Below, piece by piece: positions 24,948 through 44,320 of a stretch of DNA of 64,000 nucleotides. Numbering within the stretch: the stretch's first letter is position 1; every line of letters starts with the position of its first letter. The DNA is from a virus (taxonomy: Duplodnaviria > Caudoviricetes). Under the pieces are notes generated by a model that saw nothing but the letters and a program-made list of their open reading frames with translations, had not been told where the DNA came from and made no database searches. The stretch covers positions 32,001 to 96,000 of IMG/VR virus record IMGVR_UViG_3300029288_004596. One strand, written 5' to 3'. A program made the translations under genes and the position numbers.

Positions 24948-24948
24948 A

Positions 24949-27900
24949 TTATCCTCCCGCTAGTTTTGTCGCCATGTCGTCTATGTAGTTCTTATCAAAT
25001 ACAGTCCTGTTGTCCTGAGTGTTTACTGTGGGTTGAGCTGGGATAGGAGCGTTTGAACCAGCCCCTAGAGCTGTCTGTATGGATTCCACTAAATCATTAT
25101 GGGAGATGTGCTGTTCAGTGGTGCCGTCAACGCTTATTCTTATACTCTTATACTTGGGGGATATTTTGGTAGAGATGTCGTTGTGCTTCACTGATATTGG
25201 CATTTCTTTTTCTTCCACATTCTCCAAGTTTGGTTTTCTCATAGCTGCAAAGGCTGCCCCAGCCGCCATGATGGCTACTGGCAGTTTATGATCCGACATC
25301 CATTCCACTACTCTTGGGGCTGTCTCTTCTGCCTGGCTAACTATATTATACATCCCTCCGCTGAACTTTGTAAAGCTTGGTTGCGTGACTCTTTCTATGG
25401 CTAAAGGATCTATGCCCATGTCTCTATTGATATAGGATCTCACCAGGTTCCTGAGTTCAATGGGGTTCCTCCAATCAGAGGCCACCTTATCAAGTTCTCC
25501 TGGGGATAAAGAACCAATAATTCTGCCCTCTAAGTCCATGGCTTCTTCAGGGACGTTGTTCCATCCAAGGTAGTCCATTATGTTTCTTCTGGTGACATCG
25601 TCCAGATCTGGAGTAGCAAATATCTGTCTGCCTACTCTGTCTAAGGGAACTTCAGATAAGGGCTTGCCTTTAAATTCCTTAGCTATCCAGTTGCTGTAGG
25701 GCACTGTCAATGGAGGTCTTAAGGAGTTTTCCAGAACCTCATTTCCTATGCTCTCTATCTGAGCTGATTGAGCAGCCAGGTTATTCCTTCTATTCTGCAG
25801 GTAGTTGGAGAACTCTCCCTGAGTTAGCAGGTTGTACCTTTCTATATCTAGCAGGTGTTCTGGAGTTGAGCCTATTTTTAGAGCATACTCTCTGAGAGAA
25901 GTCGCCCCTCCTTGTATAGCTTCTAGTAGTTCAGGGTCTCCTATCTTCTGGGCTAGAGGAGTTCTCTGAGTAGCCAGGGCTGGAGCTATTGTTTCATTCC
26001 ATAGAGTAGCGCTGACTCTAGCTAAATCATCAGGAGGCATCTCCTTGCTTAGTCCCAGGACTGCTTTTTCTGTGTCAGACATATTGCCTATCAGTCTTCT
26101 GGAGATTCTCTGGACATCAGCGTCAAAAGCTTCAGCTGAACTTATGTTTATGCTTTCAGCGTTTGCCCCTAGGGCGTCTATGTTAAAGGAGAGTTTCCTA
26201 TTCCAAGTATCTATCCTTCTGTTGAGTCTCTCATAGGGAGCCAGCTCATCTACTCTGGACCAGTAGTTGGAAAGGATTTCCTTTTCCTGTTCCTTAGTGA
26301 AGTTGAGGGAGTTGAGTCTCTCATAGAATCCTCTATGAAAATCATTGTACTCATCCAGCCAGGCTTCTCGGACATAACCCATCTGTTTCTGGAGTCTCTC
26401 ATCATCCAAGAGACCAACATACTTGGTTACATCCTCTCCCCTTTGCTGTCTCAGATATATCTCATCCAGGTTCTCCAGCCTGTAGGCTTCATCAATTCCT
26501 GCGGCTGTGGACTCTCTGGCTCTTCTGATTCTTCTGCCCGCTAAGTCCTGAGCATATTCTATCCTAGCCTTAGTGCCTTCTTCCAGGGTCTCAAAGGTAT
26601 GGAACTGTCCCTGTAATCTGTTTACCAGATTATAAGTAGAGTCTGTCACTCTCACATACTTGTCAAGAGCATTGCCTCGGTCATCCAGTTCTCTTAGTAC
26701 AGCTGTACTGGAGTCCGAGAAGTCATAACCATGTATCTGGAAAAGTCTGCCTTTAGTGGAAGTCCCTTCTAAACCAAATAGATACTTGCCAGTGAAGGGA
26801 TCAGTTACTTCCTGACCAGAAATCCTAGACTGCAGAGCTCCTATTCTATTCATTAACTCTGCAGCTATATCTCTTGTAGTGGCTGCATCATAGACGCCTA
26901 TGTGTTCTTCTTTCCAGGTTCCAGCTCTAACACCAAGGTACTTGGCTAGGTTCTCTAGGCTATAACCTCCAGGTATAAGGTTGCCTGTCAAGTCCTCATA
27001 GACCTTAGCCAGCAGCATAGTGTCTATACTCTTGAGTCTTTTCTTTTCTAAGCTGGCTAATACTTCTGGGGGAAATCCCAGTTCCTGGGCTCTGGATATG
27101 AGAGCGTTAAAGTCAAACTGAATGTTGTGCCCGACTACATAAGGGTTTTCTCTTCCCAGCCATGAGGTCAGCTGTTCTATGCTTTCCTTCTCGGTGGTTA
27201 CAAAGTTAGGAGTATAGCCAGGAACCTTCTTTCCAAACTCATTCTTCCAGTTAGGGGCTTCTCCTACATTGAGAGCTCCTCTGTCATGACTGTAACCAAC
27301 CCCGCCAATGTTTGTTATCTGATTCTCAGGGTTGGTCTCTATATCTATATAGGTTCCATACTCTGACTTAAAATACTTTAACCTTTCCAGCATATCCATG
27401 TCAGAAAGAGGTATTACTGCTCCGTTAGCTAGCTTAACAAACTTAGCTTCAGTGGTCCTTGAGATATCAAGAGATCCTGGAGGAGGAGTGGAGGATATAG
27501 TGTATAGGTCCTTAAGTCCTAACTCTATTTCTTCTGGGTTCTTGTAGTAAAGGTTTCCATTATAGAGTAGCCCTTGTTCTGTCAGGGTACCCGTTCCCTC
27601 TAATCCTATAGTCTTATTCAGATTGAGGTTTATGCTATTTCTTACAGCGTTGATGGCTTCTTCTAGAGAACTTCTCTGAGCAAAGAGTTTGTCTACCTTT
27701 GACATATGGGTGGAAAGAGCCTGACCTGTTAGGTTTGCCGCTTCCCTCATAGCCGCGTCTATCTTGAGTTCTGTTTCCTGTATTCTCTGTAATAGGAGAC
27801 TAGCTTCCTGGAGTTTCTTCTTTGCGTTGCCACTGACAAGTCTTCCTAAGACAACCTCTAAACCTAGGTTATCCTCTCCAAGTATGGGACCTAGAGCTTC

Positions 27901-30378
27901 CATCATGGCTCTGAATCTGCCTTCAGTTCCCCATGACTCTCCAAGGATATTGCTCAGTCCCTGGATCGGAAGCACTTTCTTTCCTTCTATATCTAGGATT
28001 ATTCTTTTAGCTGGGTTAATCGCTTCGCTGGATCTGACTCTCAGGTCTTCTAAGGCAGAGACTTCAAATAGCTCGGAGGCTTCTTTGTATTCCTGGTCAG
28101 CTGGACTTATTCTCCACTTCCCTTTGGCTATTCTCTCCAGCTCTATCCGCACTACATCCCTGGGGTTGAAACCTCTGCCTATGTTCTCATACTTTTTGAG
28201 TCTCTCATCTAAGGCTAATAGTATATCCCCAGCTTCCGCGTTTATGTTTCTATTGGTGAGGTCAAAGCCAGCTTCTTTAAGGGCCGTTATCAGCGGGGCT
28301 CTCTCTAGGTTATTTTCAGTCACTCCCTGGCCAAGGATTCTTCCCGCTATACCCAGCTGTCTAAACTGCCATCTTTCCAGCTTGGAAGTTTGTCCAGCGA
28401 GTCCTATCAACCCAGGAACAGCTTCTTCTGATGCTGGGGCTATTCCCTGTTTTACCTTATATAAGTCTATCTGTCCTATAAGGTTATCTAGGACATCTTC
28501 ATCCATTCCCTGGGGTAGGACTATACCCACATCAAACTTGCTAAGAAGGACCTCGACATTGTTAGTGGGGACTCCATATAGTTTGGTTTCCCCTCCCTCA
28601 AGGGCTTTCCTAGTAATTCTGTATGGGACTTTTCCTACTGTGGCATACTTGGTTGTGCCAGCTGAGTAAGCCATGGCCTCTTCTATAAGAGCCGCTTTCT
28701 TAGAGGCTGTGGAGTGCGCCTCTTCCCATGAGGGTCTGGTGTAGATATCCCTTATGGTGTCTCCCTGTAGTCTTCTTTCACTCCATTCATTTTCTATATC
28801 ATCCCATGGTCCTCTGAAAACTTCATAAGGTCTTGTTTCTCTAAATTCTCTTTCATACTGGTCCACCTTCAGCCATTGCAGAGTTGGGTTTACTATGCCC
28901 TTGGTTAGATTCTCAGGATACTGTGCTGGGATTATATCCGCTACTGTGTTGGATATGTCTCCCATCACGCTGGATAGGTACTCTAGGGTTGAATCTATCC
29001 CATGGGCTCTGGATGCAGTGACAAACTTGGGAGATTTGGATGAGCCTATCAGGGCTCCTTTTTCATTGGCGTAGGAACTCCATTCTCCCGCCACTATGCT
29101 GTAACCTTTTGTTGTTCTCTGAGGAATGGTTGATTGACGAGCTTTGTTTCTTACGCTAGATCCAAACAGACTGGCATTCCCTGGGTCTGTGGCATAGAAG
29201 TCTCTATCAAAGGTCCCAGCATAAGTGTTGACTACCTGGTTGTACTCGAATCTGTTGGGGAACTCTTCAGCCATCATAGAGATGGCGTTCTCTATGTTAG
29301 CCCCAGTCAACCTCAACTTAGCCAATTCATTATTTAGTTGAGGTATGAGACCTCCTTTCCTCATGAGTTTCCTGGAGAGTCTCTCAGCGTATAAGTTGAT
29401 AGCCTGTCTATCCCCAGCCTTTAAAGCTCCAGCTAGATTAGAGATAGCTCTTATTACATCATCTGAATATGCTACTTTGGGTCTATCAAAGAGGGTGGCA
29501 AACTCCCTCCATATCCTGGCCTGCTCTGGGGTAGCGTTGCCAGCATGCGCGGCTTGCGCAGCCCCTATGATATTTTCCAGCCTCTGTCCAGTGAAGAGTC
29601 CTGAGAAATCTGAACTTGGGTTTACAAGTTTCCACACATCCATCAGGTTCTGAGCCTGCCAGGACTTGGACTCTATAAGAGTCTGGATATTCTTTTTCTT
29701 ATTGAGCAGAGTCCTAAGTCTTTCTTCTGCCGCATCAGACTCGCTCACATAATGTTTGAGGTCTCTAGCTCCATCTATTGGAGCGTTGGTGGATAATCCA
29801 AGGGTTGTTCTTCTGCTCTCATCCAGGATAGCGGCCAAGTCATTAACCACATTCCTAACAGTGGCGTTGCTTCTATCTGGTAGTTTCTGGAGGATATAAG
29901 CTCTGAGTCTAGCCTTGTCCACATTCCTGAGGTTGATGCCCATGACTCTGGAGGTTTCCATGCTGTCCGCTTCCAGAGCGTTTAACACCGCCAGGATATC
30001 ATGTTTAGTCTCTAGCCTGGGTTCATTCTCCACTTTCTTCCTGACAGCGTCTATAGAACTCTTGATAGTCCCTGTCTTCACATGGGTGGCTGGAGTCCCT
30101 GGGATATTCCTGGCCGCCATAGCCGCTTGGGCGTTGGCGGTGTAACTTCCAGCTATCCTGTTAGGTATGGTTTCTCTTATTGCTTTGGAAATATTCTCCA
30201 GGACAGGTCTTATGGAGTTGGCGTCTATAGGATATCTTTTGTAGGTGGAGTAGGCGGCATAGTAAACCGTGACAGCGATAAAGCCCTCGCTGATAGGATC
30301 AATCGAGGTTATCCTGCCTTCTCTTAAGGTTTGGTTGTCGCGTACTCGGTCTCCGACCTTGTAGTGTCTGTAGTCCAT
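24949..30378 (-). CDS. Giant protein with an internal DEDDh (DnaQ-like) 3'-5' exonuclease domain (~26860-27360) (1809 aa)
   Basis: YIDIETN, VVGHNIQFD, IDTMLLA, YSLENLA and EEHIGVYDAATT form a complete DEDDh set; N-terminal SH3/KOW-like YKVGDRVRD; the rest looks helical and is unassigned. Confidence 0.75.
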   Translation of the reverse strand: MDYRHYKVGDRVRDNQTLREGRITSIDPISEGFIAVTVYYAAYSTYKRYPIDANSIRPVLENISKAIRETIPNRIAGSYTANAQAAMAARNIPGTPATHVKTGTIKSSIDAVRKKVENEPRLETKHDILAVLNALEADSMETSRVMGINLRNVDKARLRAYILQKLPDRSNATVRNVVNDLAAILDESRRTTLGLSTNAPIDGARDLKHYVSESDAAEERLRTLLNKKKNIQTLIESKSWQAQNLMDVWKLVNPSSDFSGLFTGQRLENIIGAAQAAHAGNATPEQARIWREFATLFDRPKVAYSDDVIRAISNLAGALKAGDRQAINLYAERLSRKLMRKGGLIPQLNNELAKLRLTGANIENAISMMAEEFPNRFEYNQVVNTYAGTFDRDFYATDPGNASLFGSSVRNKARQSTIPQRTTKGYSIVAGEWSSYANEKGALIGSSKSPKFVTASRAHGIDSTLEYLSSVMGDISNTVADIIPAQYPENLTKGIVNPTLQWLKVDQYEREFRETRPYEVFRGPWDDIENEWSERRLQGDTIRDIYTRPSWEEAHSTASKKAALIEEAMAYSAGTTKYATVGKVPYRITRKALEGGETKLYGVPTNNVEVLLSKFDVGIVLPQGMDEDVLDNLIGQIDLYKVKQGIAPASEEAVPGLIGLAGQTSKLERWQFRQLGIAGRILGQGVTENNLERAPLITALKEAGFDLTNRNINAEAGDILLALDERLKKYENIGRGFNPRDVVRIELERIAKGKWRISPADQEYKEASELFEVSALEDLRVRSSEAINPAKRIILDIEGKKVLPIQGLSNILGESWGTEGRFRAMMEALGPILGEDNLGLEVVLGRLVSGNAKKKLQEASLLLQRIQETELKIDAAMREAANLTGQALSTHMSKVDKLFAQRSSLEEAINAVRNSINLNLNKTIGLEGTGTLTEQGLLYNGNLYYKNPEEIELGLKDLYTISSTPPPGSLDISRTTEAKFVKLANGAVIPLSDMDMLERLKYFKSEYGTYIDIETNPENQITNIGGVGYSHDRGALNVGEAPNWKNEFGKKVPGYTPNFVTTEKESIEQLTSWLGRENPYVVGHNIQFDFNALISRAQELGFPPEVLASLEKKRLKSIDTMLLAKVYEDLTGNLIPGGYSLENLAKYLGVRAGTWKEEHIGVYDAATTRDIAAELMNRIGALQSRISGQEVTDPFTGKYLFGLEGTSTKGRLFQIHGYDFSDSSTAVLRELDDRGNALDKYVRVTDSTYNLVNRLQGQFHTFETLEEGTKARIEYAQDLAGRRIRRARESTAAGIDEAYRLENLDEIYLRQQRGEDVTKYVGLLDDERLQKQMGYVREAWLDEYNDFHRGFYERLNSLNFTKEQEKEILSNYWSRVDELAPYERLNRRIDTWNRKLSFNIDALGANAESINISSAEAFDADVQRISRRLIGNMSDTEKAVLGLSKEMPPDDLARVSATLWNETIAPALATQRTPLAQKIGDPELLEAIQGGATSLREYALKIGSTPEHLLDIERYNLLTQGEFSNYLQNRRNNLAAQSAQIESIGNEVLENSLRPPLTVPYSNWIAKEFKGKPLSEVPLDRVGRQIFATPDLDDVTRRNIMDYLGWNNVPEEAMDLEGRIIGSLSPGELDKVASDWRNPIELRNLVRSYINRDMGIDPLAIERVTQPSFTKFSGGMYNIVSQAEETAPRVVEWMSDHKLPVAIMAAGAAFAAMRKPNLENVEEKEMPISVKHNDISTKISPKYKSIRISVDGTTEQHISHNDLVESIQTALGAGSNAPIPAQPTVNTQDNRTVFDKNYIDDMATKLAGG

Positions 30379-32714: not shown

Positions 32715-32716
32715 AC

Positions 32717-33190
32717 CTAGTCAATGTATCCTGTGGCTAGCCCTGAGGCTACCATCTCCTCTGAACCTATGTATCTTCCACTCTCCACCAGTTCCTTATA
32801 CTTCTCTACTGGTATGTCTGTGTTGCCTGTGATAAATCTTTCCAGCACTGAGTCGTCAATCTTCAATCCCTCAGCCGCTATCTGCAGTTCCTTGTAACTC
32901 CTCCAGGAAGAGCACTGTTCTGTGATATTATGAAACAGGAAGGTGGCGTACTTGCTTACCAACCTGTTCTTTCCAGCCGCGAATATCATTGTGGCGCTTG
33001 AAGCCACATATCCTAGTCCCACAGTGTCTGCGTTTCTCATCTTAAGAGCAGTGGCTATTCCCATAGCTGCGGGGACTTCTCCTCCTGAACAGGATATCCA
33101 GACAGTGATGTCTTCTTCAGCATCCAGTATCTCCTTGATAATGCTGTCAGCTACATCCGAATCAATCTTTGTGACTATGATATTTACCAT
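32717..33190 (-). CDS. clpP: ClpP-like serine protease (157 aa)
   Basis: ISCSGGEV..AMGI, GLGYVASSATMIFAAG (catalytic Ser), FLFHN (catalytic His), Y...EEMV..GL. Confidence 0.85.
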   Translation of the reverse strand: MVNIIVTKIDSDVADSIIKEILDAEEDITVWISCSGGEVPAAMGIATALKMRNADTVGLGYVASSATMIFAAGKNRLVSKYATFLFHNITEQCSSWRSYKELQIAAEGLKIDDSVLERFITGNTDIPVEKYKELVESGRYIGSEEMVASGLATGYID

Positions 33191-34068
33191 GTAACCCCCA
33201 AGTCTTTTGATAGTCTGTATCTTGTAGTCTGGCTTAGAGCTTCCACAAACTGTGGATGGCTTGCTGGGATAAGTGTAGATCTCCTGTGTCCACAGTATCT
33301 CCAGTGAAGGTTTTCCATGTCCTCAAATACCTCTATGGTCAGTTTCTTTTCTGAGGCTGCAGAGTATATGGCTGGAGAAGTGAATCCTATAGATCCTATG
33401 CAGTTAGGATGCTGCACAGCTCCAACAGAAAATAGGATATCTTCGCTGTCTTCTACAATACTATACATAGGAGGGAGATTATCTCTGGTCACTCCCATGC
33501 TTTTCAGCCTCTCAGCTCCAGCTAGAACTATAAACTTCTGGCTGGATTCCTTCTTGTAGTTCTCATAGAGTTTCTCCCTGACATAGCTTTTGTTTACAGT
33601 TATAGTGTCTATTAGATAGTCTTCTGGCATGGTGTCTATGGGAAGTTCTGTGGCAAAGGTTATGATCTCGCAGTAACCTTTGACTAGGTTCCATTCTGGG
33701 GGAGCATTGGGATCCAGTCTGGGGTAGAAGTCAGGTTTTTGCACCTGCTCTTCCAGGATTCCATTGGCCTTGGCTATTTCTTTTACCCTCTTGTCTATTT
33801 CCTCTTTTGTTCTTCGCCTGGTCAAAAACTCCATTTCCTTGGTTTTGTTTACATCAGCTTCAAGTCTTATGGCATACTTGTAGTCTGTGTTGGCTGGCAG
33901 TACAGCTGTACTTTTATCCACAAACCAGGCCTTGCTCCCGTAGTTCCTCTGGTGTTCATTGTTTGTGACTAGTATCTGAGTTTCATCATAGAAGTCCTTA
34001 TACAGTTCCATGGCCTTACATGCCGCCATAAAGTCTGTATTGTCCCCTTCAAAGATGTAAGTGATCAT
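33184..34068 (-). CDS. Hypothetical protein, possibly a divergent GT9 (heptosyltransferase-like) GT-B fold
   Basis: N-terminal EGDNTDFMAACKAM..YK...I.VT and C-terminal IGFTSPAIYSAASEKKLTIEVF echo GT9 motifs (G.GD...; IG.DSG..H.AAA...T..LF). The ATG at 34068 overlaps the upstream TGA. Confidence 0.4.
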   Translation of the reverse strand: MITYIFEGDNTDFMAACKAMELYKDFYDETQILVTNNEHQRNYGSKAWFVDKSTAVLPANTDYKYAIRLEADVNKTKEMEFLTRRRTKEEIDKRVKEIAKANGILEEQVQKPDFYPRLDPNAPPEWNLVKGYCEIITFATELPIDTMPEDYLIDTITVNKSYVREKLYENYKKESSQKFIVLAGAERLKSMGVTRDNLPPMYSIVEDSEDILFSVGAVQHPNCIGSIGFTSPAIYSAASEKKLTIEVFEDMENLHWRYCGHRRSTLIPASHPQFVEALSQTTRYRLSKDLGVTW

Positions 34069-34352
34069 TTCCTTCTCCTGCTTGAGGGAACCCAGACCCA
34101 TAGAGTAGACCCAATAGAAATGTGTTCTTTCAGGGTTATTTGGTATTCGCAGTCAAACTCTTCTATAGTGTATAGGTTGGGGAATAGAAGTCTCCCCTCA
34201 GGTCTAACAAACACCAGACAGTTGTTCTTCTCTATTTCTCTTTCCCTGAGTTCTTCAGAGACTCTGGTTATAGCTGTGAGAGCTTCGTTTTTGTCAAAGT
34301 CCACAAGCTTGAATGTGTTGTCAGATATCTTGTAAGTTAGTATCCCTGGCAT
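34065..34352 (-). CDS. Hypothetical protein (95 aa)
   Basis: TAATG coupling with GGAGG RBS. Confidence 0.55.
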   Translation of the reverse strand: MPGILTYKISDNTFKLVDFDKNEALTAITRVSEELREREIEKNNCLVFVRPEGRLLFPNLYTIEEFDCEYQITLKEHISIGSTLWVWVPSSRRRK

Positions 34353-35467
34353 TATAACCTCCTTCCCGTCAGTTCAGAAGTGTAGTTGGCGCAGTAACTG
34401 CCATCTAGATTTATTCCCATAATCACGTTCCCTGGCAGCGCCGGGGAGTAATCCATTCTATAGGCATAGGTGTCTAACCAGTCCATAAAGGACCCGGCAA
34501 TTATGTTGTAGCATATCCACTGTTCCTCGCACTTCTTCTGAGAGTTCATTATAGTGAAGGGTTCCCTGTATATGTTGGGACAGTGAACATGACCTGAGAT
34601 GTTGAAGTGTATAAACCCAGGATTTCCTACCTTTGTCATGGCGGCCCTCTGAATGCCAGTAGGAGTGGAAGGGCACCTTAGCCCATGTCTAGCCATGAAT
34701 TCCCAGGAGTGTGCCCCAGCGGAAACCATAAATCTAACTGATCCATCAAAGGATTCTATCTTGAGTTCTCTGGCTATCAGTTTGTTTATATTCTGTCCAG
34801 AGCCTTTTCTGGTGCGGTTTTCATGGTTTCCTGGGAGAGTGAATAGTATCTTGTGGGAGATGGGAGCGAGGAGTTCAAGGAGGTCATCCACCTGCACATC
34901 TGGGGGTTTTATAGTGTCGTAACACATCCCCCTCCCATCCTCCATAGCGTTCTCCATGATATCTCCTCCAATGAAGGTAGACACATTTGGGGTGTTCTTT
35001 ATAAAGTCTATGTGCTGCAGGAACTCATCATACTTGTGTCCTCTATGTCCATAGTGCACATCATAAAGAGGCAGGAAATAATAGGTGTCATCCACAAAAC
35101 AACTCTCAGGAAGATCTACAAACAGGGATCTCTGAAGGCCTCCTTGTTCCGCTAATGGTCTGTGGGTTACAAACTCTGTGGACTTGACGCTTGTAGGCAC
35201 CAACTGATATGTGGTTACATCCTTGGATACCTTGGCTATGTGGCTTCCTTTGTACTCCTTATCGAGCACTGACTGATACTTGGGGCCGAACTTTTTCTCT
35301 AACTCTACCACTGTTCTTGGCTTGGTGAGGAACCCTATAGGTGTATCGGGCAGCTCCTTCATCTCTGTGGCGAAAGTGTGCACTCCTAAGTGCGTTAGTC
35401 CTAATTCCTCTGCTATCACATCGTAAGGTTTGCCTGAAAGGATTGCCTCTTCAAGGCTTCTTGTCAT
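34352..35467 (-). CDS. Calcineurin-like metallophosphoesterase with an N-terminal HTH-like extension
   Basis: DVHYG, GGDIME, PGNHE, RHG and GHVH motifs; GGAGG precedes the ATG at 35467. Confidence 0.9.
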   Translation of the reverse strand: MTRSLEEAILSGKPYDVIAEELGLTHLGVHTFATEMKELPDTPIGFLTKPRTVVELEKKFGPKYQSVLDKEYKGSHIAKVSKDVTTYQLVPTSVKSTEFVTHRPLAEQGGLQRSLFVDLPESCFVDDTYYFLPLYDVHYGHRGHKYDEFLQHIDFIKNTPNVSTFIGGDIMENAMEDGRGMCYDTIKPPDVQVDDLLELLAPISHKILFTLPGNHENRTRKGSGQNINKLIARELKIESFDGSVRFMVSAGAHSWEFMARHGLRCPSTPTGIQRAAMTKVGNPGFIHFNISGHVHCPNIYREPFTIMNSQKKCEEQWICYNIIAGSFMDWLDTYAYRMDYSPALPGNVIMGINLDGSYCANYTSELTGRRL

Positions 35468-35492
35468 CTTATGTCCTCCGTGTGGATTTATT

Positions 35493-35527
35493 ATTATAAG
35501 TGTATCAATAACTTCGTAGTGCGTCAA
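35493..35527 (-). promoter_or_regulatory. Candidate sigma70/sigmaA-type promoter for the inserted cassette
   Basis: TTGACG (35527-35522), 17-bp spacer, TACACT (35504-35499), immediately followed by TATAAT (35498-35493). Confidence 0.5.
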
Positions 35528-38500
35528 GCAAATCCTGCTCCCTTTTCTGCTTGATGGCTAAGTCCACATTAAGTTCATCATTGTTAAGGTTAGCGTCTTC
35601 ATTTGTGGCTATCACAATTCTCAGATTCTTAAGGCCCCTGCCAGAAAGTATCTTGTTTATCCTATCACTTATATCGCTGGAACTGCCGTATACTGTGGGA
35701 GTGTCTATGTTCTGGGTGTTCTGTTTGGCTTCATATATCTGAGAAGGATAGATACCAAAGTCCATTGGGTCCATTCCTTCTTCCACTATAGCCTTAGCCT
35801 TGATGTCATCCAAGTTCAGTCCCGGGCTCCATCCCTTCCAGTCCTTATCTGGCAGGGTATGGGTTTTGAAGTACTCTCTCAGCAACTTTCTCTGTGGAAG
35901 TCTCTTAGGGTCAATGCCCATGTAAGGTCCTATCAGTCTCTTCTGATAGTCAGGCATGAGCTTAAAGGCTTTCTCCCTCTCCTCAGGAGTAGACTGTGTT
36001 AGAAAGCCCTGTATGAACTCTCTTTCATACTTGGGGAATGCCGCCATCACATTTAGGAGAGGACCTCCAGGCATAGCCCCGTACATAGTAGCCGCATATT
36101 TATCTCTGTACAGCATAGCCTGATTGGTTAGTGGACCTAAGGCCAAAGTCTGCTTTCTCTCAGCCAGATTCTGTATTTCTTGTCTTATGCGCAGCTCTTC
36201 AGGAGTTCCTTTCTTGCCCTTCCTGAGTAGTTGCTGCCTTTGCTGTCTGAGCTTAGTGAGCTTTTCTTTTCTCCACTTCCCAAGGTTATTGTATCTGCTG
36301 TAGAGTCTGTCTACATCCACCCCTTCTTTTTCCTTGGCGAGTTCAGCAGTCCTTGCATATAAGGCTCTGTACTTCATGTACTTCAGTATATCAAAGTACT
36401 CTTCTATGTCTCTTCTCTTCTGGGTTCTCTTTGGCACCCACATATCATCAGTGTTATCCAGGACTCCCTGTCTTATGAGGGATAGTCCTGCTCCAGCCAG
36501 GGCTCCCCAGCCAGCGGCTTTCCATCTAAGATTTCTCTGGGAGAAGAAGAAACTGGAAAATAATCCAGCTCCAGCCGCTGCTCCTAAAATGCCTCTACCC
36601 ATGAAGGATGTGATAGAAGGATTTATAAACGATGAATAAGGAGCCTCCCACCTTGCGCTTCTGGATCCATAAGTCTGTCTCTCATATTCCTCATAAGGGG
36701 ACTTGACGTCAAGAAACTTTGTGTTTAGGATAGACCGCATGTGAGCCATGGATTCCCACTTGGCTCCCTTGCTTATTTCAATAGCTGAGAACCTGGCCCA
36801 TACTCCAGCCGCAGTCCACTCATTCTTCTCAGTTCCCACTCCACTTTCCAGGAGTTCTCTGTTTATATTCTTTCCATTCTTTATGATGACAGCATGCTGA
36901 GTTCCCAGGACATCATCTGAGTATCTGTTCTGCGGGTCTGCATTCACAAGAACTTTTATCACACTGCCCTTGTGCACTCCAAACTGGCTGAATAAATACT
37001 CAGCTGGCGTCATGTTTCCTTCAGGGGCACCATAAGCGTCAGTGATTCTCTCTATAGAGTTCCTTATCCCAGCTAATCTTAGAGGATGCTCATCTCCATA
37101 CACTGATATGGTGTTGGCGTCTATGATATCTTTTACTATGTATCTGTGGGTTTCTACATCAGCGTACTTGAATCTGTAGGGGTAGAAGTTATATCTTCTT
37201 TTCTGAAGAGTAGCCCTGTGCTTTGCCGCCTGCACTCTCTCATTCTCATTCTCTGTGAGCTGATCATTGTTAGCCATCTGATCCTTGAGGGCCAGGTATT
37301 CCATGGACCAGGGACTGGTATCGGCCAAGATCTCAAACCTGGTAACTGGATCATACAGAGTGGCTCTAGACACCTCTCCCCTTTCCACCATTCCCCTTAT
37401 GTCTTCTCTGGCCGCTTCCACTTTAGCTATGGTCTGGTTGAGCAGACTCTTGGAGAAGTCCACATTTATGAGCCTCACCTGATTAGGATCGTCCCTGTTC
37501 ACATAGGCTAGCATTCCTTTGTGTATTCCTGACTCATAGAGATAGAAGTTTAACTGTTCCATGTGCTCCTGGAAAGGCTGCCCTAAAGCAAACCTCTTGG
37601 CAGACATGGTCTTTATCTCAGCCACCACGTCTCCCTGCCCCATGTTCAGTATAGCATCCATGTGCCCTGTAATCCCAAGGGCTGGATCAAAGATCTCCAG
37701 TTCCTTACCCTTGAGGATTCCCATGTTATTCCACTTCCTCTGGATAGCTTTATGGGAAGCTGTGCCTTCTTCCATGACTCTTTCAGAGTAGGCTGAAGAA
37801 CCCTCATCATATCCCAGCATTTCCAGGATGAGTTGTTCTTTAGTCCTGCCAAGGGAAGAGGCCCTGGTCTGCATGAGTCTATTTCTATGGACTCTCTCAT
37901 AGGCTTCTCCTGGAAGTCTGACAAGTCCATTCTCTACCTTTGTATAAGGATCTCCTTCCTGGAAGTTAAGGAAGTAGTCTGACCCTGGCATAAAGGAGTA
38001 TTGCATGGAGTTGGGGACTGGATTGTAGCGCTCCACATTCCTAAGTTTGTGGGGCATAAACCTTCGGCCTATTTCTGAGAGTTCTCCCCCAAGACCTCCT
38101 AGGTTAGCATTCCAAAAGCGCTGCTCATAGGAGTAGGCTTCTCCTGTGTCCGCTATTACAGGACCAGTTCTCTGACCAAATGGAATTGAGGTTGCCCAGC
38201 CATAGAGACCAGTGTATTCCCTGGCTAAATATCCAGCCATCTCCATATCCGAGATGGTCCTCATATCCTCCAGGTCTTCTTCTGTGAACCCACCTGTCTG
38301 TTCAGCTAGTCTCTGCATCCTTGAAGGAGTTAGCCCAGCCCCTGTAGCCTTGAGGTTCCTGTTGATCCTCTCTATCTCCCACTTAGCCAGTCCCTTTATA
38401 TTGTTTCCTTTATCTCTGGTTCCTAAGTGAGAGGTATCTGTATCTATTTCCCCTATCTGTTCAGCGGCTATCCCTCCAGCTGGATTTACTGTGGCTATAG

Positions 38501-41500
38501 AACCTGCGGCTACTACTGTGTAAGGATCTCCTCCACCGCCAGTTCCCCCTCCCTTGAGGGACATGTTTATAGCTCTTATCCCTTCCTTGGCCTGGGTCTT
38601 GCCCATGTTCTCCGGGAGATATTCTGGGTATAGAACTCTTTCAGGTTTGAAGATCCTGCCTATAGTAGAGTTGACTAGTGGTCCCCATAGGGTTTCTCGA
38701 GTGGCTATTGGGCCGGACACTACATAAGGTCTGTCTGGGTTGTCCCCCATGGAGTGGCGCTGTTCCCACCACATAGGGTCTAGGAATCTCATCACTGGAG
38801 CTAAGGGGTGCCGGGGGGTAGGCAGCAGAGAGTGAGCCCAGTAAGCGTCTGACCTCATGTCAGCATTCTCAGCGTCCTGCCAGTTGGAGTAGGCCAGCTG
38901 ATATGGATCTGGCATGTAGTATTTTATCTTGTCCCCATAGATAGGCGATCTTGAGCCAAATAGCCACAGCCTTCCTCTCCTTACCGGGACATATCCTGAT
39001 TCTAACTGTTTTTTGGTATCCTCTGGAGTGGTGCCTGCAAGATAATTATCCATGCCTGGGTGGAGTTCATTGTATCTCTCCCAGTCATTGAGGTGTGAGA
39101 AGGCTATCTTGGCGTTGGCTCTTACATTGGCCTTTAGTTCATTAGGGGAGGTTCCAAAGAGGTTCTCTGATTCCCAGTTCACATAGTTCCAGGCTTCTAT
39201 TCCTAGTACAGCCGGTACTATTCTCTGCATTATCAGACCCCTGAGGATCTTGCCTCCAGAACCCATGGCCTCAGGTCCGAGTCCTAATCCGAAAGCTTCC
39301 AGAGGTTTATTGAGTCTTGAGTTGAAGAAGTACCAGGTGAGAGCTGACCTGGTCATATCCTCAGGATCATCCACTCCCCTCCATAGGGCAGTGGTATACT
39401 GTTTTATAGCTGTAGAGCCTGTGATATTGCTCAGGACATCAAAGAAGTTTCCTCCGTTTTGCCAGGCTCTGTTTATAGACTCTAGTATTGACTGGTGCTC
39501 TTTTATAAAAAGTCTCTGAGGACCATTGCTTATCTCAGGATTCCAAGTATCCCAATACCCGAGCTTGGCATCTACCATTGCTTCAGCAGTTAATCTTATG
39601 TCTTCTGAGATATGTTGCGAACCTACCAGTCCTTGATACGCTCCTCTAGCTCCTGATATTCCTGTCAGCTGATCTCCCAATAGATAACCATATCTGACAG
39701 CTAAGGCGTCTCTCGATTCATTGATAGGCACATCCAAGTTTACTATGATATCTTCGATTCCTCTTCCCAGCTGACCAGGACCACCTAGGTTTATATTTCT
39801 CAGAACCTCTTCTTTTATAAATTTCCTGGCAGTGTCATAGCCAGTGAGAGGTTCTTCTTTCCCAAGGAACATATCCACTAGAGGATTCACCGAGTTTCTA
39901 GCAGTCTTCTTCCCCAGGGTTCTGGCTGGGTCCCTGTCAAACTCCTCAAGGAAGTATCTGAACTCATCTGACCTTATAGCTTTTCTGTCTACATTTAATA
40001 GATAATGCAGTAGATGGCTGTTGGAATCCAGGTTATTGGCAGCTACCCTGAGATCTATAGGGAGATAGCCCCCATTGGCCGTCACATCATCTAGGATTCC
40101 TTCCAGGACATTCTGAGATATATTGCCTTCCTTTTTCAGGAAGTTTACCACAGACCTTATGGATTCTATATTTCTTACAGGATCAAAGTCTGGGTTGTTG
40201 TATATATCGTTTAACGCAGCGGCTGGGTAAGTGGAACCTGGATTCATCTTGGCGAATATGGATTTTACTTTCCCAAACCATGACTGCTCTCTTTGATTGA
40301 GTTGCAGAGTTCCTCTAGTCCCACCATGTCCAAATCCCAGCGCTCCTCTGACTCCTCCGGTCTTAGGGGTGTCAAGATAGTCTGTGAGGTTCTTGTAGAT
40401 GTCTTCCACAAATCCGCTATCCGCAGTTAAAGAAGTGTAGCCTTTGCCCAGTTCTCCTATAGAAGCGTTGCCCAGTTCTGAGAACCTGGAACCTATAAGA
40501 GTGTTGCCAGCTATAGTCAGGTCCTGCCCCTGAGCCGCCAGGTGCCTAGTGAGAGGCTGTCTAGCCACAGCGTTCTGGTGGATAATATCAAAGGTTCTCC
40601 CAGTTCCTCCTTTTAGCCAGCCAAAGAACTGAGTTGGGGAGAAACCTTCCAGGTATGGGAGCACTGGGATCTGCATGTTCTGGTCTACCCAGTCTATAGC
40701 TCTTCCTAGAGTTTCCTTGAAACCTCTCAGGTCTCTGACAGTTCCTTTTTCATCCATCCAGATCTGCCCTACAGCAGTGGAGTTTATTATATCCTGAAGA
40801 CCTTCTCTGTGCCCTGATAAACTCAGGGAGGCTCTTAATCTCGCTGAGGATTCCTGAGCCTGCCTCACCACATCTGCTGAGAACCTGTCTCTATTGGAGA
40901 GCACGTCATTGACAGTGACTCTTCTAGCTCCCAGCTGCTCCATGAGAGCGTCCATGTAAGTGGGGCCTCTCCCAGCAGCCATGTTGCTAGCTTTGGCCTT
41001 GGTGACGACTCTTCTTTGCAGAGCGTCTATAAACGCTTCCGCATGGACTTCTCTGGCTCTCTGCAACTGGGCTCTAAGATTATCTGACAGAGGAAAATCT
41101 TTATTGAACAGGGTTGTCAGATTGCTTTGGTCAAAAGCTCTTTCCAGATTCTTCTGGATCTCCGGTATGTTTCCTCCAACTGAGGCCACGAAATCCCTGT
41201 AAGCGTCTTCCTGAATGACGGAACTTCTAAGGGTTCCTCCATGCAGCCACTGGTTTATTCTTGAAGAAGGAGCCACTCCCCTATTGTATCCCAGGAGCAG
41301 GTCCACCTGTTCTCTGGAGAACACTCCTGTGGCTCTGAACCTCTCTTCAGCCACCTGCTGTCTCAGCCTCAGAGGCAGAGTCTCTGACATAGCCGCTCTT
41401 ATCTCATTGGATAAGTTGGTTATGGAGAGGTTTCCTAGCTTCTCGGAACCGGTGGCGAACTTAGACACAAAGCGTTCTACGCCATTTATGATGTAGCCGC

Positions 41501-41600
41501 CAAGCTTCTTCCTGTTAACCACAGCGGCGGATATCGCCCCTATGCTAGCAGCCCCTATTAAGAACCTTCTAGTTCCTTTTCTGTCTTCGTAGTTGTCCAT
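35505..41600 (-). CDS. Tape-measure-position giant protein with PD-(D/E)XK Cas4/RecB-like nuclease (~37400-37870) and degenerate SNase OB domain (~36830-37150) (2031 aa)
   Basis: Directly follows the tail chaperones; Gly/Ala-rich hydrophobic segments. Nuclease motifs: EEGTASH, GHMD, AEIKT, QLNFY. SNase-like: VKDIIDANTI...LRLAGI...NINRELLESG. Confidence 0.75.
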   Translation of the reverse strand: MDNYEDRKGTRRFLIGAASIGAISAAVVNRKKLGGYIINGVERFVSKFATGSEKLGNLSITNLSNEIRAAMSETLPLRLRQQVAEERFRATGVFSREQVDLLLGYNRGVAPSSRINQWLHGGTLRSSVIQEDAYRDFVASVGGNIPEIQKNLERAFDQSNLTTLFNKDFPLSDNLRAQLQRAREVHAEAFIDALQRRVVTKAKASNMAAGRGPTYMDALMEQLGARRVTVNDVLSNRDRFSADVVRQAQESSARLRASLSLSGHREGLQDIINSTAVGQIWMDEKGTVRDLRGFKETLGRAIDWVDQNMQIPVLPYLEGFSPTQFFGWLKGGTGRTFDIIHQNAVARQPLTRHLAAQGQDLTIAGNTLIGSRFSELGNASIGELGKGYTSLTADSGFVEDIYKNLTDYLDTPKTGGVRGALGFGHGGTRGTLQLNQREQSWFGKVKSIFAKMNPGSTYPAAALNDIYNNPDFDPVRNIESIRSVVNFLKKEGNISQNVLEGILDDVTANGGYLPIDLRVAANNLDSNSHLLHYLLNVDRKAIRSDEFRYFLEEFDRDPARTLGKKTARNSVNPLVDMFLGKEEPLTGYDTARKFIKEEVLRNINLGGPGQLGRGIEDIIVNLDVPINESRDALAVRYGYLLGDQLTGISGARGAYQGLVGSQHISEDIRLTAEAMVDAKLGYWDTWNPEISNGPQRLFIKEHQSILESINRAWQNGGNFFDVLSNITGSTAIKQYTTALWRGVDDPEDMTRSALTWYFFNSRLNKPLEAFGLGLGPEAMGSGGKILRGLIMQRIVPAVLGIEAWNYVNWESENLFGTSPNELKANVRANAKIAFSHLNDWERYNELHPGMDNYLAGTTPEDTKKQLESGYVPVRRGRLWLFGSRSPIYGDKIKYYMPDPYQLAYSNWQDAENADMRSDAYWAHSLLPTPRHPLAPVMRFLDPMWWEQRHSMGDNPDRPYVVSGPIATRETLWGPLVNSTIGRIFKPERVLYPEYLPENMGKTQAKEGIRAINMSLKGGGTGGGGDPYTVVAAGSIATVNPAGGIAAEQIGEIDTDTSHLGTRDKGNNIKGLAKWEIERINRNLKATGAGLTPSRMQRLAEQTGGFTEEDLEDMRTISDMEMAGYLAREYTGLYGWATSIPFGQRTGPVIADTGEAYSYEQRFWNANLGGLGGELSEIGRRFMPHKLRNVERYNPVPNSMQYSFMPGSDYFLNFQEGDPYTKVENGLVRLPGEAYERVHRNRLMQTRASSLGRTKEQLILEMLGYDEGSSAYSERVMEEGTASHKAIQRKWNNMGILKGKELEIFDPALGITGHMDAILNMGQGDVVAEIKTMSAKRFALGQPFQEHMEQLNFYLYESGIHKGMLAYVNRDDPNQVRLINVDFSKSLLNQTIAKVEAAREDIRGMVERGEVSRATLYDPVTRFEILADTSPWSMEYLALKDQMANNDQLTENENERVQAAKHRATLQKRRYNFYPYRFKYADVETHRYIVKDIIDANTISVYGDEHPLRLAGIRNSIERITDAYGAPEGNMTPAEYLFSQFGVHKGSVIKVLVNADPQNRYSDDVLGTQHAVIIKNGKNINRELLESGVGTEKNEWTAAGVWARFSAIEISKGAKWESMAHMRSILNTKFLDVKSPYEEYERQTYGSRSARWEAPYSSFINPSITSFMGRGILGAAAGAGLFSSFFFSQRNLRWKAAGWGALAGAGLSLIRQGVLDNTDDMWVPKRTQKRRDIEEYFDILKYMKYRALYARTAELAKEKEGVDVDRLYSRYNNLGKWRKEKLTKLRQQRQQLLRKGKKGTPEELRIRQEIQNLAERKQTLALGPLTNQAMLYRDKYAATMYGAMPGGPLLNVMAAFPKYEREFIQGFLTQSTPEEREKAFKLMPDYQKRLIGPYMGIDPKRLPQRKLLREYFKTHTLPDKDWKGWSPGLNLDDIKAKAIVEEGMDPMDFGIYPSQIYEAKQNTQNIDTPTVYGSSSDISDRINKILSGRGLKNLRIVIATNEDANLNNDELNVDLAIKQKREQDLLDALRSY

Positions 41601-41603: not shown

Positions 41604-41632
41604 AAAAAAAAGCCCTCCTCTATGGGAGAGCT
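41604..41632 (-). terminator. Intrinsic terminator-like hairpin containing the GGAGG RBS of the 2031-aa gene
   Basis: Minus strand AGCTCTCC-CATAGA-GGAGGGCT-TTTTTTT-ATT-ATG. Confidence 0.7.
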
Positions 41633-42191
41633 ATTTTATAAAAGTGAAATTCCCTTCTGACTCAAGCCTTGAGGGTTGTCTGTTAACCCCATAGGCGTTG
41701 CCATGCATTCCTGGAGGTTGCTGCTGCGGCAATACTTGAGCTGGCGGAGTTCCTTCTAAGAATACAGATGGGTCAACTCCATGGATTCCGCCCATTATCA
41801 TCTTTGCCATAGCGGCGTACTTGTACCAGGTTAGAGATTCCATGCTCTCCAGGATATCTGGAGTCATGGTGGGGAAACAAAAGCATATCAAGCAGTCTAT
41901 TCTGGCTTCATCTGTGGAAGCCCAGTCCTCAACCGCCTTTATCAGTTTCCTTACAGAGTCTTCATTGAGCATACCGCTCGCGTCCAGTATAGCTTCAGCT
42001 AGAGTAGATGGTATGCCAGCATAACAGTCTTCCCATCCTGGGAAGTCATCTGGGATTTTAAGGGTGCATAGCTTGGCTATCTCATCCTCAAAACCCACAG
42101 GATCATCTAAGTTCTCAGCCAGGATCTCCTTGTATTCTTTCCTTGTGAGAGATCTGTAAGTGTAGGTCTCCCCTAGAATAGAGATGTCCAT
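41631..42191 (-). CDS. Tail assembly chaperone-like protein (186 aa)
   Basis: YTYRSLTRKEY...AGIPSTLAEAILDASG, homologous to both halves of 42197..42895; lies between the tubes and the tape-measure-like gene. Confidence 0.65.
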   Translation of the reverse strand: MDISILGETYTYRSLTRKEYKEILAENLDDPVGFEDEIAKLCTLKIPDDFPGWEDCYAGIPSTLAEAILDASGMLNEDSVRKLIKAVEDWASTDEARIDCLICFCFPTMTPDILESMESLTWYKYAAMAKMIMGGIHGVDPSVFLEGTPPAQVLPQQQPPGMHGNAYGVNRQPSRLESEGNFTFIK

Positions 42192-42196
42192 GCATC

Positions 42197-42895
42197 CTAG
42201 AGTTCCTGAACTTTGGCGGTGGAGTTATAACCTGAGGCTGTGAGGATCATGTTGGAAAGGGTGGGACAGTAGCCTGCTGGTTTAGCATTCCAGTCTATTT
42301 TCTTGGGCCAGAGCACGCAGCGATTGCATACTTCCTCGTCTCTTTCCATGTCGTCTCCAGAGTCTGTGGCTCTTTTAGCTGCCACCTTCCACTCCTGTCT
42401 TGTGATAGGCCTTATCACAAAAGACTCCTCTTCAAAGATGACTTCCTTTATAGGGAAGGGAGTGCCAGCCTTGAGTTTATCTATATCCTCAGTGCTGGGT
42501 CTCACAGGTATAATCACATCTCCTATAGTAGACGCTCTAGGCTGAGGTATATCCAGCTCAGGGACTATAAATCCCGACTTAGCCTGGATCCATGAGGACA
42601 GTGTTGGCACTAGTCCCGCTGGAAGTCCAGTCCATCCGCCTTTCTGAGCGTCTGGCTGGGGACATATGAGCCCATAGGTCACTATCTTTTCATTGACATC
42701 GTCTATGGTCATGTTGGGGTTGCTCTGAACAGTGGACATTACTGTCTCCCATTCTCCTTTAGAAAGAGTCCTGACCACGAATTCAAAGTCTCCCACAGGC
42801 ACAAGGTATATCTTGCCAAACTTGGTTTTTAGTTCTGAGATCGCTTCATCTGATAGCTCGAAGTCTATCAGAAGCGGGTGCTGATTAGTTTTCAC
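42197..42895 (-). CDS. Tail assembly chaperone-like protein with an internal duplication (232 aa)
   Basis: FVVRTLSKGEW...PAGLVPTLS..I..KSGF and FVIRPITRQEW...PAGYCPTLS..I..ASGY. Confidence 0.65.
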   Translation of the reverse strand: MKTNQHPLLIDFELSDEAISELKTKFGKIYLVPVGDFEFVVRTLSKGEWETVMSTVQSNPNMTIDDVNEKIVTYGLICPQPDAQKGGWTGLPAGLVPTLSSWIQAKSGFIVPELDIPQPRASTIGDVIIPVRPSTEDIDKLKAGTPFPIKEVIFEEESFVIRPITRQEWKVAAKRATDSGDDMERDEEVCNRCVLWPKKIDWNAKPAGYCPTLSNMILTASGYNSTAKVQEL

Positions 42896-42904: not shown

Positions 42905-43690
42905 TTATGAAATGCTCCTACCCACAAATGAGTAAACCTCAAGGATGTTTCTCCCTGAGTCATCTATGGCTTTGGCGTAACTTCCTATGTCGCATCCCCT
43001 TATGATTTCCAGAGTTCCCCATTTATCATAAGAAGGATACTGATTGTTCCTTACTTCTTCTGGTTGTCCAAACTTCACCAGGATGTCAAACCCTTCTTTA
43101 GTGGTAGCATACCTGGGTCTCTTCATTATTCTATCTGTGGTTCTGCTAGTGGCGTTGTTGTTGACTCCCCAGTATGTCTCGTCAAAGGAATCCATGTAAT
43201 CTCTGTAAGCGTTGGGGTCATTTTGATTAGCTACATTGACTATATCCTCTAAGGTGAAGTCTCCTCCAAGAGCGGCCTGCTGAAGAGTAAGGTTCTTGGT
43301 GGCCATCTTCTTGCTAAGAGTCTTTATATCTTTATCAGTTCCCTCTTCATTAGCCAGTCTCTGGAGTATCTTGGTTATGTAACCTGAGTCCTTAAAGTTT
43401 ATGGTGAATGTGCCTTGTATCATCCTGGAGCCATGGGAGAATCTTCTGGGTGTATAGTCTGCATAGGAGAATACAGGTTTAACCTGTTCAAGTTCCTGGT
43501 ACTGCAGGGCTACGGCTTCATCTATGTAGATGTTGTTGAAGTAAACAGACACGTCCAGTCCCGAATAGTATGTGGAGTCAAACTCTCCAGTCACTATCCA
43601 CCTTGGAAGATCTCTATTGGGGTTTCCCAGTCCAGACTCGCTGCTGTAAAGATCCGCCCAGTTGTTTGGTCTGTTATATTTTAATCCCAT
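42905..43690 (-). CDS. Tail tube-like protein 3 (261 aa)
   Basis: YSGLDVSVY...GSRMIQGTFTIN...FDILV...YSFVGR, homologous to the two upstream tube-like genes. Confidence 0.7.
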   Translation of the reverse strand: MGLKYNRPNNWADLYSSESGLGNPNRDLPRWIVTGEFDSTYYSGLDVSVYFNNIYIDEAVALQYQELEQVKPVFSYADYTPRRFSHGSRMIQGTFTINFKDSGYITKILQRLANEEGTDKDIKTLSKKMATKNLTLQQAALGGDFTLEDIVNVANQNDPNAYRDYMDSFDETYWGVNNNATSRTTDRIMKRPRYATTKEGFDILVKFGQPEEVRNNQYPSYDKWGTLEIIRGCDIGSYAKAIDDSGRNILEVYSFVGRSIS

Positions 43691-44285
43691 TGTTTATTAA
43701 GCTTCCATCCTCTTTCCTTGGAGGGGTCACAGGCTGGAATGGTATTCTCCTTAGAGCCATGAATGAGTAGCTCTCCATTAATATTATAGTCTCTAGATTA
43801 TAGGAAGTTCCTTCATCCAGTATGGTGATGCCTTCTATGACTGAGTAGCTGGCTTCTCCAGTTTCATTGACAGCTGTTATTATTATATTGAATGGAGGCA
43901 GCTCATCGGCAGCTGAATAGTCAGGACTTAGATGTGATCCACTGGATAAAGCTGACCTTACCCAGCTATCTACCGAGTCTCTAGTCAGCATGGAGAAGGC
44001 GCTTCTGTCTATAGTGTTGAAGGCCAGGGTCCCGCCAATCGTGCGGTGTCCAGCGGTATATCCCTTAGGCCCTATAGAACCAAGGGAGGCTACAGGGAAC
44101 TTGTCTCTGTGCTGAGATATGGAAATCATAGCTATAGTCCCCAAAGGTATAGTCTTGGTTACCCCGGGAATTGTGCCAGGAGGAATAAGGGCTGTCATAT
44201 CAGCGGCAGAAAAACCATTTCCCTGATCATAGTAGTTATAGGAGCCAAAGTGTTGACCCTTTTCATCATAGTATTTTTTTACCAT
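43674..44285 (-). CDS. Tail tube-like protein 2 (203 aa)
   Basis: FSAADM...GHRTIGGTLAFN..DR...DELPPFNI.I..VNETG...G.T...EG...YSFMA. Confidence 0.75.
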   Translation of the reverse strand: MVKKYYDEKGQHFGSYNYYDQGNGFSAADMTALIPPGTIPGVTKTIPLGTIAMISISQHRDKFPVASLGSIGPKGYTAGHRTIGGTLAFNTIDRSAFSMLTRDSVDSWVRSALSSGSHLSPDYSAADELPPFNIIITAVNETGEASYSVIEGITILDEGTSYNLETIILMESYSFMALRRIPFQPVTPPRKEDGSLINNGIKI

Positions 44286-44287
44286 AA

Positions 44288-44316: not shown

Positions 44317-44320
44317 TAAG

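Follow-up and report, generated by a model that had tools for sequence, protein, structure and literature searches.

The window analysed here is a stretch of 64,000 bp, bases 32001-96000 of the IMG/VR virus record IMGVR_UViG_3300029288_004596 (216,899 bp, 93% complete), which belongs to an uncultured phage. Its open reading frame (ORF) 35505-41600, on the minus strand, is open over 2,031 codons, and the protein of this ORF is called P0001 below. In the direction of transcription the gene order is tail sheath, tail tubes, two small genes, P0001, a group of other genes and an ORF of 1,809 amino acids (aa), and it continues with a family-A DNA polymerase, a 317-aa ORF, a 2,544-aa hub/lysin and baseplate genes. 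Our analysis showed that P0001 contains an intact-looking nuclease domain, and two findings on this domain are new. First, it is an optional insert in the family of gp145 of Bacillus phage 0305phi8-36, and it is without the four cysteines of the iron-sulphur (Fe-S) cluster. Second, it is homologous to a stand-alone Fe-S Cas4-like gene, with which its distribution is nearly mutually exclusive.

A tblastn search of phage records with P0001 matched ORF145/gp145 of Bacillus thuringiensis phage 0305phi8-36 (YP_001429636.1, annotated as 'virion structural protein'), with 31% identity over aa 725-1997 (E 1e-117). Further homologs were found by tblastn in Moorella phage MTATph1 and in Bacillus phages Edson, WH1 and KLEB27-3, and those of WH1 and KLEB27-3 also carry structural annotation; Megablast against phage records gave no match for P0001. 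When 1.84 billion representatives were scanned by HMMER with aa 1120-1660, 1,494 of them matched at E<=1e-3 and 352 at E<=1e-30. The matched family members are mostly about 1,850-2,250 aa long, and those with genomic context lie on contigs of about 200-310 kb. Four isolates and about 80 IMG/VR loci have these genes in the order sheath, tubes, chaperonins, P0001-like gene, second giant gene and hub. Judged by sequence, P0001 is a member of the gp145 family of 0305phi8-36-like jumbo myophages. According to a note in its GenBank record, gp145 was identified as a virion protein by mass spectrometry, which is in line with the proposal of an earlier note on this DNA that a tail-module virion protein carries the nuclease. 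The same record annotates neither a function nor a nuclease domain. In the 2007 comparative paper (PMC2147016) gp145/ORF145 is unnamed, and the passages on nucleases refer to other genes. Our literature search found no paper on a nuclease in gp145-type proteins, and none on MTATph1, KLEB27-3 or WH1. The gp145-like gene of KLEB27-3 (L004 7619-14772) is annotated as two pieces, gp031 and gp033, with a 211-aa ORF (gp032) and some 460 non-coding bases between them, possibly the result of an intron or a homing-endonuclease insertion.

The nuclease domain contains the motifs EEGTASH (aa 1277-1283), GHMD (1312-1315), EIK (1328-1330) and QLNFY (1349-1353), and its active-site residues are H1283, D1315, E1328-x-K1330 and Q1349...Y1353. 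In PHROGs it matched the Cas4-like phrog_1706 (aa 1244-1461, E 3.8e-19), and a profile of 33 family members matched Cas4 SSO0001 (4ic1) with E 1.7e-6. In the HMMER alignments D1315 and E1328-x-K1330 stand opposite the GRADAI and EIK stretches of SSO0001. P0001 itself scored below the cut-off of Pfam PDDEXK_1, and its homologs P0167 and P0025 scored above it. Two AlphaFold models had a predicted local distance difference test (pLDDT) score of >90 across the domain, which matched LHK-Exo, Cas4 SSO0001, MGME1 and lambda exonuclease in Foldseek (E about 1e-6 to 1e-5). Compared with 48,161 chains in VIA-align, the domain had Z scores of 14.6 for SSO0001, 14.1 for LHK-Exo, 13.2 for lambda Exo, 12.9 for MGME1, 10.9 for Dna2 and 10.3 for RecE; the matches span 14.6 to 10.2, include Exo5 and indicate a restriction-endonuclease-like fold.

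We then compared 116 homologous domains, taken from representatives at 50% identity. H1283 was kept in 88%, D1315 in 98%, D/E at 1328 in 92%, K1330 in 90%, Q1349 in 90% and Y1353 in 85%, and the complete set H/D/(D/E)xK/Q/Y was present in 97 of the 116. Since the catalytic motifs are conserved in divergent homologs, they are real and under purifying selection. The earlier note had read an intact PD-(D/E)XK domain without Fe-S cysteines from these motifs, and had proposed to check its fold and its conservation. This reading holds: the motifs are present, the fold is predicted by profile and structure (Cas4 SSO0001, Z 14.6), the D/(D/E)xK site is complete and kept in 84-98% of the distant homologs, and P0001 has no cysteine at all. 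By the curated cut-offs and the cysteines, the nuclease is a PD-(D/E)XK enzyme of the Cas4/RecB/lambda-Exo group and not Cas4 proper.

The Moorella and Edson proteins lack aa ~1239-1413 as a clean deletion, with the flanks aligned on both sides (alignment A1). Three forms were found among the 80 IMG/VR loci, namely with nuclease and SNase-like domain, with the SNase-like domain only, and with neither, and proteins of each form are about 1,850-2,250 aa long. In a FastTree built from the non-insert blocks, the nuclease must have been gained or lost at least five times; the tree was made quickly and its branches are long, so that the count is approximate. The relative nearest to P0001 in it (L007) has the nuclease, and the next two (L024 and L025) are without it. 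In gp145 of 0305phi8-36, which like P0001 follows a split chaperonin pair (gp143/gp144), the insert has D, DIK and QQLNFY and is accompanied by the SNase-like domain and the C-terminal region; unlike P0001, gp145 has a large additional insertion within the nuclease domain.

Two free proteins align across the entire insert, gp092 of KLEB27-3 (E 6e-16) and CDS0075 of MTATph1 (E 9e-12). CDS0075 lies directly upstream of the DNA polymerase and close to RuvC, helicase and primase, and gp092 lies near ClpP and RuvC; gp092 has an insertion at the same place as the nuclease insertion of 0305phi8-36 gp145. These stand-alone relatives, like those in phrog_1706, have the same motifs as the insert, but they are free-standing, about 280-290 aa long and encoded in replication/recombination modules, whereas the insert is held at both ends. 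They also keep the four Cas4 cysteines, one N-terminal and the others in CxxCx5C. We searched phrog_1706 across whole near-complete genomes, 12 with an embedded copy (the window phage, 0305phi8-36 and ten IMG/VR records) and 13 without. No other copy was found in 10 of the 12 insert-bearing genomes, and 11 of the 13 insert-less genomes had a stand-alone gene, coding for 265-310 aa. In the FastTree each of the two states appears in several distinct clades.

In homologs of P0001 (P0002-P0194), insertions of intein size (330-930 aa) recur at seven or more sites, which correspond to positions ~884, 934, 950, 1175, 1200-1227, 1413-1424 and 1625 of P0001. Many of these homologs have intein or LAGLIDADG Pfam domains. 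In this sample the sites are all in the conserved core blocks and none is within the nuclease or SNase domain, and P0001 itself has no intein. Such an intein density is unusually high for a virion protein. The optional, patchy distribution of the nuclease, in a family so heavily invaded at seven or more sites, would suit a selfish or decaying passenger, such as a homing-type nuclease or dead domain that does nothing for the phage. However, the insert has no splicing motifs, its catalytic residues are kept in most of the divergent copies, and it replaces the stand-alone gene instead of supplementing it. We therefore regard a passenger of this kind as very improbable.

P0001 has no cysteine in 2,031 residues and its 1,809-aa neighbour has none in 1,809, compared with 0.3-2.7% cysteine in the other proteins of the window. 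In the gp145 family 191 of 236 proteins have no cysteine. All family proteins with at least 8 cysteines are either overlong by 300-1,100 aa or have mapped intein-size insertions, and many of the cysteine-rich ones carry intein Pfam domains. The 116 embedded nuclease domains have one cysteine in total: the N-terminal cysteine position is Thr in P0001 and Ser, Thr or Asp in the family, and the C-terminal cysteine stretch is gone. The lack of cysteine outside the inteins is consistent with storage of the protein in an extracellular particle and with its passage through a narrow channel. Such storage and tail passage would explain the loss of the cluster from an Fe-S enzyme. In AddB and Cas4 the Fe-S cluster has a stapling role, which in the insert may be replaced by the host protein holding both of its ends. 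Three further proteins of the tail region, all on the minus strand, are cysteine-free, with 894 aa (4413-7097), 317 aa (21948-22901) and 203 aa (a tube paralog, 43674-44285). By contrast, the hub has 22 cysteines and the chaperonins have 4-5. The cysteine-free set may mark the proteins that leave the virion.

These results also bear on whether the enzyme serves as a recombination exonuclease in the cell that produces the virions, its incorporation into virions being incidental. This would agree with its distribution, complementary to that of a stand-alone replication-module gene, and with the DNA polymerase, Mre11-like phosphoesterase and ClpP-like protease encoded near P0001 within the tail block. 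But if the enzyme were purely cytoplasmic, neither the loss of its Fe-S cluster nor the lack of cysteine throughout the family would be easily accounted for; both are readily understood in a protein that is stored and translocated. Tail genes, moreover, are usually expressed late, once replication is under way. On balance, a purely intracellular role seems quite unlikely.

Outside the nuclease, P0001 has hydrophobic segments, conserved core blocks and a charged C-terminal region (see the table). An AlphaFold model of aa 840-1665 (826 residues) formed a compact globular module with a predicted template modelling (pTM) score of 0.76, in which both core blocks pack with the nuclease, the connector and the SNase-like domain. 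The linker between the blocks is disordered in this model, leaving an ordered core of about 700 residues, and block 2 was poorly modelled when block 1 was left out. No structural relative was found for the core blocks, which were searched only within the 826-residue model, so that this is not evidence of a new fold; an ESM Atlas search with aa 800-1240 gave no usable match. The SNase-like domain matched SNase (Z 10.1) and Tudor-SN (Z 9.5) over aa ~1482-1605 in VIA-align, the family profile matched SNase with E 2e-4, and homologs P0127 and P0025 exceeded the cut-off of Pfam SNase (PF00565). In the family profile alignment the SNase residues D21, D40, T41, E43 and R87 are all replaced and R35 alone is kept. 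From these residues the domain is predicted to be a pseudo-nuclease whose catalytic residues have been lost family-wide, and most plausibly it is a nucleic-acid-binding OB module, as in Tudor-SN. Both an SNase-like OB fold without catalytic residues and membrane-like Gly/Ala segments had been proposed from the letters alone, and both were recovered here, the latter at aa 10-31 and 1663-1712. At NCBI the name given to a Virgibacillus homolog is 'glycine zipper 2TM domain-containing protein'.

Table 1. Features of P0001 and of the surrounding genes, in window coordinates.
Feature	Position	Strand	Basis or remark
P0001, whole gene; homolog of 0305phi8-36 gp145, cysteine-free	35505..41600	-	ORF, homology, composition
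N-terminal Gly/Ala-rich hydrophobic segment, aa 10-31	41508..41573	-	hydropathy scan
Conserved core block 1, aa 840-1000, rich in Pro and aromatic residues	38601..39083	-	alignment, model
Gly-rich, poorly conserved linker, aa 1001-1111, pLDDT <50	38268..38600	-	composition, model
Conserved core block 2, aa 1120-1238, ending RLPGEAYE	37887..38243	-	alignment, model
Inserted PD-(D/E)XK nuclease domain, Cas4/lambda-Exo type, aa ~1239-1413	37362..37886	-	
Helical connector, aa 1414-1480, starting LYDPVTRFEILAD	37161..37361	-	kept in all family members
SNase-like OB-fold domain with degenerate active site, aa ~1481-1620	36741..37160	-	
Two Gly/Ala-rich hydrophobic segments, aa 1663-1712	36465..36614	-	glycine-zipper-type hairpin
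C-terminal region, aa 1713-2031, conserved, highly charged	35508..36464	-	alignment, composition
Tail sheath	45068-46777		
Three tandem tail-tube paralogs	42905-45052	-	all match phrog_9206
Split tail-chaperonin pair, gp143/gp144 homologs	41631..42895	-	two ORFs, 42197-42895 and 41631-42191
Mre11-like metallophosphoesterase	34352-35527	-	between P0001 and hub
ClpP-like protease	32717-33190	-	between P0001 and hub
337-aa RRXRR-family (RRXRR/IsrB-type) protein	31416-32429	-	Pfam PF14239, E 1.6e-39
1,809-aa cysteine-free giant with DnaQ/DEDDh-like exonuclease domain, aa ~1010-1180	24949..30378	-	phrog_17/192, NCBIfam epsilon-like
DNA polymerase A with its own 3'-5' exonuclease	22980-24947	-	
317-aa ORF	21948-22901	-	cysteine-free
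2,544-aa hub/lysin ORF	14317-21951		phrog_20474, gp147 homolog

P0001 is encoded by the first large gene after the chaperonins, the usual place of a tape measure, and its hydrophobic Gly-zipper segments are typical of tape measures. Family members are near 1,850-2,250 aa whether or not they have the ~300 aa of enzyme domains. P0001 might thus itself be the tail tape measure, or a co-measure, with embedded enzyme domains, as in gp96 of Thermus phage P23-45, and the assignment of the tape measure of 0305phi8-36 to gp146, the product of the gene next to gp145, is explicitly tentative (PMC2147016). However, the model of aa 840-1665 shows a single compact, globular unit, where a ruler would be extended and helical, and the published assignment, which rests on tail length, favours gp146 (PMC2147016). 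Length variation of the kind expected from a ruler is found in the neighbouring giant: in nearly all of the 80 loci a second giant ORF, of 1,100 to >2,950 aa, directly follows the P0001-like gene. That P0001 is the ruler is in our view possible though doubtful, and it is probably the neighbour of the tape measure. Of the earlier description, the tape-measure position stands, but the identity as tape measure is probably incorrect.

The 1,809-aa ORF is probably the positional equivalent of gp146. BLASTP found no significant similarity between the two, which have only TY(I/L)DIET in common. The Moorella protein at the place of gp146 matches the same exonuclease PHROG as the 1,809-aa ORF, so the presumed tape-measure lineage may carry an exonuclease too. 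A single-sequence search of the 80 loci with the DEDDh segment gave no match and was probably too insensitive. The 2,544-aa ORF was also considered as the equivalent of gp146 and was rejected, as it is the homolog of the gp147 hub/lysin. In 0305phi8-36 gp145 is directly followed by gp146 and the hub, whereas here about 5 kb of other genes precede the 1,809-aa giant, and DNA polymerase A and the 317-aa gene separate it from the hub.

Several observations were made on the other genes. The label of phrog_9206, 'major head protein', is contradicted by the notes in the 0305phi8-36 record ('tail tube', 'tail tube paralog'). The C-terminus of the first gene of the chaperonin pair resembles the N-terminus of the second (E 2e-5), which is 28% identical to gp144 of 0305phi8-36 (E 1e-12); the split pair gp143/gp144 of that phage has been described (PMC2147016). 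The Mre11-like, ClpP-like and DNA polymerase A genes are replication-type genes inside the tail block (21948-35527, minus strand). In contrast, 0305phi8-36 has its three giant genes adjacent, and the Moorella phage has its genes for protease, RuvC, Cas4-like protein and DNA polymerase together in a module at another place in its genome. The RRXRR-family gene looks like a mobile element inserted into the tail block. A 994-aa ORF among the baseplate genes (10082-13066, minus strand) matched a mosaic of unrelated enzymes in PHROGs, namely glycosyltransferase, thymidylate synthase, terminase, ribonucleotide reductase and endonuclease, a pattern that would be expected from a shared intein or homing endonuclease. 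Between terminase and portal, a 2,492-aa ORF that runs beyond the window end (window 63006-64000 and L006 1007-8485) has repeated Ig/cadherin-like units and occupies the place of the candidate curly-fibre genes of 0305phi8-36. It was rejected as a tape measure on account of its repeats and position, and is fibre-like.

An intact-looking nuclease is thus found in a virion-type protein, and relatives encode it as a separate replication gene; therefore the enzyme is probably brought ready-made into the cell along with the phage DNA. The reading that we consider best is that of a virion-delivered exonuclease acting on DNA ends at entry, and we hold it to be evenly balanced between right and wrong. 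The globular core (aa 840-1665) would have acquired the lineage's own Cas4-family 5'-3' exonuclease as an in-frame insert, minus its Fe-S cluster. P0001 would be stored in or at the tail or hub and would exit the virion along with the DNA, and its hydrophobic segments and glycine-zipper hairpin might engage the host membrane. The dead SNase/OB domain beside the nuclease would probably bind nucleic acid, and the nuclease, tethered at the entry site, would resect DNA ends. These would most likely be the ends of the incoming phage genome, and resection could start recombination, circularisation or replication prior to any phage gene expression. Among related records, several are assigned to the class with direct terminal repeats.

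The target could instead be the DNA of the host or of competitors, the delivered nuclease serving takeover or acting against plasmids, prophages or defences. The conserved active site in a virion-type protein would suit such an attack, and injected multi-domain proteins of conflict are a known theme (PMC5512222). The giant neighbour, cysteine-free and with a DEDDh-like exonuclease, could digest DNA jointly with P0001. But the nearest folds (lambda Exo, RecE, Cas4, MGME1 and Dna2) need ends, which an intact chromosome does not have, and homology to, and near exclusivity with, a replication-module gene point to a housekeeping role for the phage. We consider an attack on foreign DNA unlikely. Since the nearest folds are end-dependent 5'-3' exonucleases and the nearest sequences are replication-module enzymes, the ends of the incoming genome are favoured. 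Of the three roles offered by the earlier note (host DNA attack, anti-defence and processing of incoming genome ends), the last is thus the one that we infer, in preference to host attack.

Several points weigh against a virion-delivered exonuclease of this kind. Presence in virions is known only for distant homologs of P0001, and by mass spectrometry only for that of 0305phi8-36; our literature search found no experiment on a gp145-family nuclease. In Pfam the whole of P0001 matched no family at E<=1, and the domain alone scored 15.5 bits against a cut-off of 22.7 for Cas_Cas4 (PF01930). The match to NCBIfam cas4 (TIGR00372; E 1.2e-5) was likewise below its cut-off, with 25.2 bits against 65. 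Two of the 12 insert-bearing genomes also keep a stand-alone copy, and two complete insert-less genomes show none. The association between the two states (Fisher p ~0.001) is uncorrected for shared ancestry, and phrog_1706 missed some embedded copies (G010; L009, L043). The gene lies in the late tail block, and therefore the nuclease could act in the producing cell. Finally, a folded module of about 90 kDa cannot sit folded in the lumen of the tail tube, and it would therefore be unfolded, or be placed in the hub, neck or head.

The delivered exonuclease can be described more closely, though only tentatively, as an iron-free recombination exonuclease that is tethered at the site of DNA entry and resects the leading end, with the 1,809-aa DEDDh protein as a second part of the same kit. 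If this is true, the leading end would be committed to circularisation or recombination-dependent replication, outrunning host AddAB/RecBCD and restriction. Phage proteins that are injected with the DNA decide the first minutes of infection, yet to our knowledge few of them are known; examples are Alt of T4, the virion RNA polymerases of N4 and P23-45, and N of Mu. The gp145-type family is large, with about 1,500 representatives at 50% identity, most of them on contigs of around 200 kb, and it offers a natural experiment in which the same enzyme is free in sister lineages and virion-borne here. Phage 0305phi8-36 on Bacillus thuringiensis provides a culturable model for the pre-delivery of a nuclease. 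The loss of the Fe-S 'staple' and the absence of cysteine suggest design rules for enzymes that are stored in virions and pass through tails.

Comparison with known systems places the enzyme and its carrier separately. The nuclease has its fold and catalytic motifs in common with Cas4 SSO0001 (4ic1), LHK-Exo (3syy), lambda exonuclease (3slp) and MGME1 (5zyu); unlike the Cas4 SSO0001 group, it has no CRISPR context and no Fe-S cluster and is embedded in a 2,031-aa protein. The polyvalent proteins of Iyer et al. (2017) are large and multi-domain, and the prediction for them is that they are injected along with the DNA and function at the onset of infection (PMC5512222). Tape measure, RecB, Cas4 and SNase are all unmentioned in that paper. 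In BFVD, one structural neighbour has an annotation with 'large polyvalent protein associated domain', and Pfam detected no LPD or other family in P0001 or in four insert-less relatives.

For the carrier, the nearest parallel is gp96 of Thermus phage P23-45, a tape measure fused to the virion RNA polymerase, which has been proposed to act at the entry pore (PMC10770324). The view that tape measures carry wall hydrolases only, which the earlier note put as usually wall hydrolases and not nucleases, is outdated by this protein. The RNA-polymerase motif DxDGD is absent from both P0001 and the 1,809-aa ORF. Like P0001, gp96 is a giant tail-module protein with membrane segments and a nucleic-acid enzyme; the enzyme of gp96 is a two-barrel RNA polymerase in the tape measure of a siphovirus, whereas that of P0001 is an exonuclease in a contractile-tailed phage. 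P23-45 gp96 is one experimental precedent for a nucleic-acid enzyme on a protein of the tail lumen.

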